Origin: a virus
Lineage: Duplodnaviria > Heunggongvirae > Uroviricota > Caudoviricetes
Virus record (IMG/VR): IMGVR_UViG_2585427708_000019
Length of the DNA stretch: 39,584 nt
Strand: one strand, 5' to 3'
Position 1 is the first letter of the stretch. The number at the start of each line of letters is the position of its first letter. The translations under genes were made by a program, and so were the position numbers. Below the pieces are notes generated by a model. The model saw nothing but the letters and a program-made list of their open reading frames with translations. It was not told the DNA's origin and did no database searches. Positions 37,431 to 38,047 of this stretch are shown in pieces.

Positions 37431-37439
37431 CAATACCGA

Positions 37440-37470
37440 CCGGCAGGTTTCCCTGCCGGGTGAGTTTGTT
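37440..37470 (+). terminator. Intrinsic terminator after the small cargo genes
   Basis: CCGGCAGG-tttc-CCTGCCGG perfect 8-bp stem, then GTGAGTTTGTT. Confidence 0.6.
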
Positions 37471-37748
37471 AATGCACGTTTTGTGTATTTTCCCTCCTGG
37501 GAGAACAGGCAGGACATATCAGCATCCTGAAACAGGAAGCATTTTTGGGTTTGTATGTCTTGCCATTTTGAGATCGAGAACGGCGATAGATGAGCTGTAA
37601 GGGAGTCTTACAGGCAGGGCAAACAGGCTCTTTCATCCATGATAAAGATCTCCTTTTTATGCATCTCTGCTTTACAGGAGACCGGGGAATATCATAGGAT
37701 ACGCCACGAGCTCGAAGTAAAGCATTGATGCAAGTTTTTACAGATTGA

Positions 37749-37790
37749 CCCAGCATAGTTCCAGCTATGCTGGGTTTCACTTTTATGTAG
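37749..37790 (+). terminator. Strong hairpin with U-rich tail in the AT-rich region upstream of com
   Basis: CCCAGCATAG-ttccag-CTATGCTGGG perfect 10-bp stem followed by TTTCACTTTTAT. Confidence 0.55.
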
Positions 37791-37979
37791 TATCCTGTTG
37801 ATTTGAAACATACTACATATACGCGTGATCCTACCTTCACTGTATAAAAAGTCAATAAAATGATCATTTTATGATCGTTTTCACCACCTAACTCTTCGTT
37901 TTCTTTAAGTAAATAATCACCTCCCTGAATCATTGTTGATGACTTTTCAATCTATTTGTTGTATCAATTAAACAAATCG

Positions 37980-38005
37980 AATCGATCGTTTTTGTCGATC
38001 GATTG
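37980..38005. promoter_or_regulatory. GATC-containing palindrome upstream of com-mom (candidate Dam/OxyR-type control region)
   Basis: AATCGATCG-tttttgt-CGATCGATT inverted repeat carrying two GATC sites about 45-65 bp upstream of the com start. Confidence 0.55.
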
Positions 38006-38047
38006 CATGAGAAAGGCATCAACAACAAAGCAGGAGGTTATGCGGTC

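Follow-up and report, generated by a model that had tools for sequence, protein, structure and literature searches.

We consider it likely that the 617-bp region (positions 37431-38047) upstream of com in the IMG/VR record IMGVR_UViG_2585427708_000019, a 39,584-nt stretch of Caudoviricetes DNA which is referred to as the window throughout, is a compact and self-contained leftward gene unit composed of a promoter, a folded leader, a gene encoding a 55-residue zinc-ribbon protein, and a terminator. As an insertion, this unit would separate the com-mom promoter from the end of a plus-strand cassette. The region shares 100% identity with prophage Sp18, a Mu-like phage of Escherichia coli O157:H7 Sakai, and occurs in 233 out of 5426 complete E. 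coli genomes, predominantly in Shiga toxin-producing strains; the window represents a Mu-like E. coli prophage of the Sp18-like type. In phage Mu, the gin stop (35673) and the com start (35768) are only 94 bp apart, which bears out an earlier note on this DNA, according to which Mu possesses only short DNA upstream of com. Since approximately 3.3 kb separate the invertase gene and com here, the DNA between the invertase gene and the com promoter is extra. The description of the region as AT-rich holds for approximately 37700-38050 (31-39% GC), which corresponds to a divergent promoter zone, and does not hold for 37431-37700 (44-48% GC). About 40 related loci formed the basis of comparison, with most of the E. 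coli copies being at least 95% identical.

The short minus-strand open reading frame (ORF) with two CPxC motifs that the earlier note had pointed out (MKEPVCPACK...ICPACSPRRENTQNVH) is present and is intact at 55-56 amino acids (aa) in all 25 related loci that were read through it. Among 12 alleles, seven synonymous and four non-synonymous variants were counted in its frame, with 22% synonymous variants expected (P=0.0035), compared to three synonymous and eight non-synonymous variants in each of the two other frames. In case of alleles with a 135-aa version of the overlapping long ORF, the two ORFs are read in different frames, and the zinc-ribbon ORF is equipped with a GGAG of its own at a spacing of 9 nt from an ATG; in such alleles, which lack an extra G that is present in the window, it stands alone as MDKEPVCPACK...ICPACSPRRE(N/S)TQNVH. 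The encoded protein is strongly basic (pI 9.3-10). A homologue (family P0033) is found in Salmonella enterica on more than 1000 contigs, where it is annotated as a 52-53-aa "hypothetical protein", while the E. coli annotation lists the product only as "partial" fragments. This family is located at the same site, i.e., divergent from com at a distance of approximately 390 bp in Mu-like prophages, and is 43-47% identical, with both CPxC knuckles, GKTY(K/R)PK, and CSP being kept. Downstream of the Salmonella copy, CTCCAGCC...GGCTGGAG together with a T-run forms a canonical terminator. For the Salmonella subgroup, the coding frame is the most synonymous of the frames as well (8 synonymous versus 12 non-synonymous variants, 21% synonymous expected, P=0.04). 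Among 18 aligned family members, C6, C9, and C44 are kept in all 18 and C41 in 17, with a Tyr in P0045. Taken as a whole, these findings argue that the small zinc-ribbon ORF is a real gene, the frame of which has been preserved by evolution. Of the small zinc-ribbon regulator proposed before, the small zinc-ribbon frame thus stands, conserved across 25 loci and in Salmonella, while the regulator role is one that we infer.

Beyond near-identical E. coli copies, an exhaustive HMMER scan with the small ORF recovered a single distant cluster only, namely the Salmonella family P0033. Sub-threshold matches to PF13453 (Zn_ribbon_TFIIB) were obtained for all 18 family members (best E=7.5e-5, among members listed without bit scores); the per-protein bit scores that were seen are 9.6-21.2, the best of which belongs to P0033, compared to a cut-off of 22; PF03966 (Trm112p-like) scored 17.2, likewise compared to a cut-off of 22. 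Searches of the PDB by sequence and by profile returned nothing meaningful for the small ORF, and PADLOC 2.0 gave no match for the small ORF, the 154-aa long ORF, or the alternative cargo proteins. For these same proteins, Pfam, PHROGs, and NCBIfam yielded nothing beyond zinc-ribbon matches below threshold and PHROGs of unknown function. A low-confidence AlphaFold2 model places a beta-hairpin between the knuckles.

The predicted transcript carries a leader of approximately 185 nt with three hairpins, A, B, and C (RNAfold z=-6.2 over 203 nt). This leader is approximately 79% identical between E. coli and Salmonella, whereas the protein encoded behind it is only 43-47% identical. The DNA at approximately 37660-37860 is conserved even where the downstream gene differs, and the homology ends just 5' of the ribosome-binding site of each cargo gene. 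A leader peptide in the form of a 39-aa minus-strand ORF (37692-37811) was considered and rejected, because only 14 residues of it are left in the L002-type leader.

Hairpin B is the second of two hairpins that had been described as rho-independent-type terminators of the plus strand. It is located at the place reported, with a corrected geometry of a perfect 11-bp stem (37748-37758 with 37765-37775) and a gap of 289 nt to hairpin 1. Read on the plus strand, it comprises 13 bp with six G-C pairs followed by TTTCACTTTTAT (-21.5 kcal/mol, z -5.3, none of 200 shuffles as stable) and is the top terminator-like match of our scan. Its relatives point to a different reading. Hairpin B occurs in at least six sequence versions at one position, with perfect stems in case of ACCCAGCATAG, GGTCCAGATAG, GACCCGGTAG, GACCCAGTAG, and GCCCGGCAG, and with a stem retained apart from a single-base bulge in case of CCCAGATAG. 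In a loop-anchored alignment of eight versions, 88.8% of the cells are paired, a value that none of 500 shuffles attained (71.2% in shuffles); both sides have changed in 7 of the 10 pairs, and slid controls pair in 28-51%. The plus-strand U-tract (UUUCACUUUUAU) is restricted to the version of this window; four of the five other versions compared carry CUCCC, CGCCC, UCUCC, or AUCCU immediately after the stem. In M18, the stem requires two G.U pairs which exist in the minus-strand RNA only (-16.0 kcal/mol versus -6.8 kcal/mol on the plus strand), and the second hairpin-B copies of loci L008 and L066 use minus-strand G.U pairs as well. Hairpin B is therefore better read, as far as these comparisons indicate, as part of the 5' leader of a leftward mRNA.

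Hairpin A, the predicted 5' end of the leftward transcript, is 96% paired and almost invariant; its stem is kept in Salmonella while the loop diverges, and it is deleted in M18. In hairpin C, 91-95% of the cells are paired among nine variants and three pairs have changed on both sides; it is mostly invariant and its pairing is not significant compared to shuffles. In L066, hairpin C has a different inner sequence and still forms the perfect stems GCAUCACUG/CAGUGAUGC and AAUGCUUAUC/GAUAAGCAUU. It is possible, judging from the predicted pairing, that the CUCCU of hairpin C pairs with the Shine-Dalgarno sequence, although the predicted ensembles do not favour this interaction. Where the start reads ATGGATAAAGA, as it does in Salmonella and the canonical alleles of E. 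coli, the ancestral ATG is situated in the 3-nt loop of an 8-bp hairpin, UCUUUAUC/GAUAAAGA, with -8.7 kcal/mol in these E. coli alleles and -7.2 kcal/mol in Salmonella, in which one of the pairs is U.G. The window deviates by the extra G at 37634, which bulges the start hairpin (-5.0 kcal/mol), puts the old ATG out of frame, and creates an in-frame ATG (37636-37634) 13 nt from the GGAG. Rfam 15 gave no gathering-score match in the whole window, with only chance-level matches (E=0.26 and 0.48) for 36800-39584. Likewise, the leader was not found upstream of mom in 21 loci of other species (Edwardsiella, Yersinia, Serratia, Sodalis, Neptunomonas, and others) by blastn, nhmmer, and profile nhmmer.

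Upstream of the leader, a sigma-70 promoter is predicted on the minus strand, with a start near 37821. The -10 hexamer shares its last three bases with a Dam site, GATC (37830-37827). In M18 and Salmonella, the spacer has diverged, yet the hexamers remain TTGACT and TA[G/C/A]GAT, and both the GATC at the -10 and a GATC upstream of the -35 are conserved across E. coli, M18, and most of the Salmonella copies. An exception is given by the Salmonella locus L066, in which a different, near-consensus promoter (TTGACG-16-TATAAT) without GATC in the -10 is found at the same position, directly 5' of hairpin A. Since L066 has an independent promoter exactly there, this is good evidence that leftward transcription starts at this site. 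A perfect palindrome of 18 bp, centred on a Dam site, abuts the -35 and may represent an operator or a methylation-sensitive site; M18 and Salmonella retain its GATC, though not the palindrome in full. With seven GATC sites, 37551-38000 is the densest 450-nt stretch of the window in this respect. The paired GATC palindrome at 37980-38004, which is invariant in all relatives, is by alignment the homologue of the GATC cluster through which Dam and OxyR control Mu Pmom, and lies outside the leftward unit. A 23-nt inverted repeat (37924-37946 and 38012-38034, 78% complementary) flanks this cluster, with a left arm that is invariant in the E. coli relatives including M18. The spacing between the cluster and the com ATG is approximately 29 nt shorter than in Mu, so that the promoter geometry is unlike that of Mu Pmom.

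Hairpin 1 was confirmed at the far end of the unit, with its limits corrected to a stem of 37440-37447 with 37452-37459, the loop TTTC, and weaker pairing across 37428-37471 (RNAfold: -22.1 kcal/mol, z -3.25 on the plus strand; -22.5 kcal/mol, z -4.24 on the minus strand). It is located 10 nt after the stop codon of DUF826 and 10 nt past the stop codon of the zinc-ribbon ORF. In M18, STEC1587, JE86, and NCCP15648, it stays beside DUF826 even where the minus-strand cargo differs. A compensatory change converts CCGGCAG/CTGCCGG to CCGACAG/CTGTCGG, and relatives show G.U pairs that are valid only in the plus-strand RNA together with T-rich tails such as GGTTTGATTTTCA. Because it is kept with the cassette and exhibits these features, hairpin 1 is assigned as plus-strand terminator of the nanS-p/DUF1378/DUF826 cassette. 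The tail in the window is weak (GTGAGTTTGTT), and since the window's tails are weak on both strands the terminator scan did not list this hairpin. Due to its position 10 nt past the stop of the small ORF, hairpin 1 probably ends the leftward small-gene transcript too. As to the two rho-independent-type plus-strand hairpins of the earlier note, this view therefore suits hairpin 1 and not hairpin B, the U-tract of which is not kept in relatives.

Taken together, transcription would be directed leftward from the TTGACT-16-TAGGAT promoter with its Dam site over the -10 and the GATC palindrome abutting the -35, and would begin near 37821. The leader of approximately 185 nt with hairpins A, B, and C would be followed by the Shine-Dalgarno sequence and a start codon presented in the loop of a small hairpin, then by the frame of the 55/56-residue, strongly basic four-cysteine (Cys4) zinc-ribbon protein, and finally by hairpin 1 as the end, which would primarily serve as terminator of the convergent DUF826 cassette. 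The leader presumably acts in cis, with hairpin A as a 5'-terminal stabiliser and hairpins B and C as well as the start hairpin setting stability or translation. By analogy to the IS10 transposase promoter, the promoter may answer to the state of Dam methylation, and the zinc-ribbon protein may be a small regulator or an accessory factor that binds nucleic acid. A further-reaching version is conceivable and in our view rather doubtful, in which the promoter and three-hairpin leader would represent an undescribed cis-regulatory RNA platform of Sp18-like prophages of E. coli and Salmonella that gates interchangeable accessory genes by com-mom. In this version, the platform might be triggered by the state of replication or of Dam methylation, or by a factor that binds RNA, such as Com or the zinc-ribbon protein, and the 55-aa protein would be a new nucleic-acid-binding regulator of the DNA-modification module.

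The gene following the leader is exchanged in several strains. In M18, the same leader precedes a 175-aa protein with a zinc ribbon and a transmembrane part; in STEC1587 and NCCP15648, an unrelated small ORF (MDKLTTDQK...) is situated behind the leader together with a convergent 66-aa ORF, and in JE86 only the com promoter is kept. Because unrelated cargo follows it in other strains, the promoter-leader module appears to be a portable expression platform at a cargo hotspot beside com. This hotspot lies between the late genes and com-mom, and such sites are usual for phage accessory, exclusion, or counter-defence functions. The module ACTACATAAA plus hairpin B plus GCATCAATGCT is tandemly duplicated in the E. 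coli loci L008, L020, and L026 and in the Salmonella loci L062 and L066, with each copy carrying a different version of hairpin B, which suggests recombination between leader variants at the conserved flanks. In L062, a small acidic ORF (MNTDKQKNEERFDFNL...) replaces the promoter and hairpin A.

The long minus-strand ORF reported by the earlier note (37469-37933, 154 aa) exists and runs through hairpin B; in the RefSeq annotation of O157 Sakai it is listed as ECs_4996, hypothetical. As annotated, ECs_4996 is probably a mis-called fusion artefact, in which the extra G at 37634 would join the real small gene to a frame that happens to be open across the promoter and leader. That ECs_4996 is instead a true protein, the C-terminal domain of which is the zinc ribbon, strikes us as very improbable. 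For such a protein speak the 154 open codons in a region with an AT-rich upstream part, the RefSeq annotation itself, the rank of the 154-aa form as the most frequent allele in complete E. coli genomes (139 out of 203 complete-genome records match the +G allele best), and the match of residues 1-104 to phrog_26524 (function unknown, E=2.5e-52). The latter is the only match of this part, and since phrog_26524 is built of the same close relatives it proves nothing on translation. The fusion hangs on the single extra G, which is missing from the canonical E. coli alleles and from Salmonella and accounts for the difference between the length classes, as without it the upstream frame gives a 135-aa product. 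Several length classes exist among the homologues of the 154-aa ORF, which agree over approximately the first 100 residues and differ thereafter, and the frame upstream of the zinc ribbon is open for 154, 137, 135, 106, 99, 82, 56, or 14 codons depending on the locus. The upstream part in M18, with a DNA identity of 75%, has stops at codons 18 and 31, and the Salmonella loci contain no equivalent ORF. Variants in the upstream frame (5 synonymous versus 11 non-synonymous) give no significant deviation, and no Shine-Dalgarno sequence precedes the ATG at 37933. ECs_4996 and its relatives, which hundreds of E. coli genomes contain, the O157 Sakai reference among them, are thus probably mis-called, and the real product would be a 55/56-residue protein.

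Two other explanations concern the strand and the molecule in which hairpin B is active. It might be a plus-strand intrinsic terminator, either ending a cis-antisense RNA of approximately 80 nt that starts at a TTTACA-18-TAGGAT site (37671-37700), or serving as a second insulator that blocks read-through from the DUF826 cassette into the com-mom promoter. We consider this unlikely, though it has the stability and the tail of the hairpin on its side, which make it the best plus-strand terminator-like site in the window. Both hexamers and the 18-nt spacing of the promoter-like site are kept in the Salmonella loci L049 and L066 as well. Furthermore, a back-up terminator would be sensible because the U-tract of hairpin 1 is poor in the window, and premature mom expression is harmful to the host in Mu. 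Against it stand the absence of the U-tract from four of the five other versions compared, the much weaker plus-strand fold in M18, where the -10-like hexamer reads TCGGAT, and the lack of an Rfam match; moreover, the hexamers lie inside the conserved hairpin C and its flank, so that their conservation is expected under the leader model too. A plus-strand small RNA (sRNA) bounded by two terminators, as the earlier note had suggested, is unlikely on the same grounds, and because the DNA between the hairpins is the antisense of a conserved coding sequence. Alternatively, hairpin B and the GATC palindrome could act as DNA, either as operators for a dimeric protein or as cruciforms. The perfectly palindromic arms, the position of the 18-bp palindrome against the -35, and the highest GATC density of the window would suit this idea, which we nevertheless regard as the least probable of all. 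The sequence of hairpin B is free to change while complementarity alone is kept, which fits base pairing and not recognition by a protein, the zinc-ribbon protein is identical across three versions of hairpin B, and G.U pairs, as used by M18 and by the second hairpin-B copies of L008 and L066, would be meaningless in duplex DNA.

Several observations weigh against the leftward gene unit that we prefer. Independent comparisons are few because most of the relatives are at least 95% identical. No curated zinc-ribbon family cut-off in Pfam, PHROGs, or NCBIfam was exceeded by the small ORF, its single-sequence AlphaFold2 model reached a predicted local distance difference test score (pLDDT) of only 69, and Foldseek gave no match with E<1 in the PDB. 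In L013, which is outside the 18-member alignment, a Cys of the first knuckle is replaced by Tyr, and in L051 the zinc-ribbon ORF is frameshifted and hairpin C has two mismatches. The O157-type allele may be poorly translated or decaying, because its ancestral ATG is out of frame and the new ATG lies 13 nt from the GGAG. For hairpins A and C jointly, 94% of the cells pair and the covariation is not significant; a test of the strand by G.U versus A.C events is weak (approximately nine versus six independent events, with the structure derived from the minus strand). Sigma-70-like sites in 2.8 kb number two compared to 4.9 in shuffles, so that the promoter match of the scan means little without its conservation. 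Finally, the literature that was searched on ECs4996, the sRNAs of Sp18, and RIBOseq (ribosome profiling) and Term-seq in Sakai yielded no transcript, start-site, or ribosome data for the locus, and the promoter, the leader, and translation are consequently predictions from sequence comparison. Some of these points, namely the frameshift in L051, the loss of the ancestral start frame in the window allele, and the high identity of most E. coli copies, would also be expected of an inert mosaic scar, in which similarity reflects shared recent ancestry at a recombination hotspot, the hairpins are leftover moron terminators, and the small ORF is decaying. The exchanged cargo, the duplicated hairpin-B module in five loci, and the deletion of hairpin A in M18 fit a scar too. 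We deem it quite improbable, slightly more so than the plus-strand terminator, due to the purifying selection on the small ORF, the four Cys kept at 43-47% identity across two genera, the upholding of hairpin B through many compensatory changes, the higher conservation of the leader compared to the adjacent protein, and the conservation of the promoter hexamers over a diverged spacer.

Features of the region and of its surroundings, with coordinates in the window
Feature	Coordinates	Strand	Basis or remark
Hairpin 1, CCGGCAGG-TTTC-CCTGCCGG	37440..37459	.	fold and conservation
Zinc-ribbon gene, 55 codons plus stop (MKEPVCPACKTPLQLIYRRSRSQNGKTYKPKNASCFRMLICPACSPRRENTQNVH), predicted	37469..37636 (coding 37472-37636)	minus	conservation, synonymous excess
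Translation initiation region, predicted: Shine-Dalgarno AAGGAGA (37655-37649), ancestral ATG (37640-37638)	37629..37655	minus	alignments
Leader hairpin C, long imperfect stem-loop with conserved apical UAUC-CUAU-GAUA and 3' CUCCUGUAAAGCAG	37660..37732	minus	fold
Leader hairpin B (hairpin 2 of the earlier note), perfect 11-bp stem	37748..37775	minus	covariation
Leader hairpin A (UAUGUAGUAU ... AUACUACAUA), predicted 5' end of the leftward transcript	37784..37819	minus	fold, conservation
Predicted sigma-70 promoter, -35 TTGACT (37855-37850), 16-nt spacer, -10 TAGGAT (37833-37828)	37828..37855	minus	scan and conservation
18-bp perfect palindrome ATAAAATGATCATTTTAT, centred on a Dam site, abutting the -35	37855..37872	.	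self-complementarity
Upstream part of the 154-aa ORF (ECs_4996)	37637..37933	minus	variable frame; overlies promoter and leader
Paired GATC palindrome AATCGATCG-N7-CGATCGATT upstream of com	37980..38004	plus	aligns with Mu 35693-35768; invariant in all relatives
DNA invertase gene			left end of the local gene order
SASA/DUF6645 esterase-like gene, 679 aa	34781-36820	plus	
DUF1378	36967-37149	plus	
DUF826	37185-37430	plus	
com (ECs4997)	38048-38248	plus	PF10122 match, E=1.9e-12
mom	38202-38939	plus	

The cassette to the left of the region (34781-37430), comprising the nanS-p-type esterase-like gene of the SASA/DUF6645 type, DUF1378, and DUF826, is typical of the late region of lambdoid Shiga toxin (Stx) phages. 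Its presence inside a Mu-like prophage, between the invertase gene and com, represents mosaicism of two unrelated phage types. Among phage GenBank records, the region is matched only by two Stx phages with an inserted Mu-like element, and Mu itself lacks it. In the 2.8-kb tail of the window, the scan counted 11 terminator-like sites compared to 3.1 +/- 1.5 in shuffles. The right flank of the window (approximately 38940-39240 and 39237-39584) is unlike Sakai, where Sp18 interrupts sorM; the end of the prophage is followed here by a putative DUF488-like gene on the minus strand. Related prophage copies adjoin many different host genes, as expected of a transposing phage. In some Salmonella relatives (L049, 3398-4610), a gene encoding a C5 DNA methyltransferase (PF00145) follows com in place of mom, and L050 retains mom; the small zinc-ribbon unit adjoins com in both. 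In the supplementary RIBOseq tables of Sakai (PMC5597208), com is listed with 81.7, 727.1, and a ratio of 8.94 under column headers that are unconfirmed, and these values are presumably transcriptome RPKM (reads per kilobase per million reads), translatome RPKM, and ribosome coverage. If this reading of the columns is true, com would be translated in ordinary lysogen cultures, which is unexpected for an operon that is held late and C-dependent.

The outcome of this analysis is a sound re-annotation together with a candidate cis-regulatory leader, and not a new principle or a new kind of system. The leader in particular is a testable RNA element, in which one hairpin persists in at least six versions of its sequence and a hairpin loop presents the start codon. 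Concerning the encoded protein, the likeness to known zinc ribbons (PF13453, PF03966, and the YgiT finger TIGR03831) is generic and consists of the two CPxC knuckles, all matches being sub-threshold. A more specific comparison is offered by the neighbouring Com (PF10122), since both are small basic Cys4 zinc-ribbon proteins and are encoded side by side. In Mu, Com is the translational activator of mom, the mRNA of which has an inhibitory structure at its start, and the location of the start codon of the small gene in a conserved hairpin recalls this structure. The spacing of the Cys differs (CPxC-27/28-CPxC in the small protein versus CxxC-15-CxxC in Com), and no similarity to a Com site was found in the small unit. 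A homology of the small protein to Com was rejected, as the small ORF had no match to PF10122 even at E up to 1, at which only Com itself matches.

The promoter may be compared to Dam-sensitive promoters, such as pIN of the IS10 transposase with a GATC in its -10, and to the Dam/OxyR-controlled mom promoter of Mu. Similar to these, a GATC overlaps the -10 of the leftward promoter and a further conserved GATC is present upstream of the -35; unlike these, the TATAAT promoter of L066 has no GATC in its -10.

For prophages of O157 Sakai, the anti-sRNAs AsxR and AgvB and other Hfq-bound sRNAs have been described, including the candidate EcOnc37 in Sp18 (Tree et al. 2014, PMC4104026). RNAs of the AsxR/AgvB type are short, have strong terminator hairpins, and are convergent to moron genes in prophages of the same strain. 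None of the sRNAs listed in PMC4104026 falls within 37431-38047. EcOnc37 (Sakai v1 5077340-5077410, minus strand) maps to 36810-36880 of the window on the minus strand after a genome-version shift of +127, approximately 600 nt left of the region. At 36810-36900 on this strand, between the esterase-like gene and DUF1378, two terminator-like hairpins without Rfam match were observed, ACTCC-ttcg-GGAGT followed by AUUUUUAUUUU and CCCGCC...GGCGGG followed by AUUUUUUUAUU. In relative position, this site corresponds to the AsxR/AgvB anti-sRNAs of Stx phages.

As a whole, the predicted unit fits the definition of phage morons, i.e., autonomous units of promoter, gene, and terminator that are inserted among the conserved genes of a phage (Juhala et al. 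2000, as cited in PMC4104026). It constitutes extra DNA compared to Mu, has promoter-like and terminator-like signals of its own, is oriented opposite to its neighbours, and combines an AT-rich promoter zone with exchangeable cargo at a fixed site. Unlike typical morons, it is the promoter and a long structured leader that are conserved here, while the gene is swapped.

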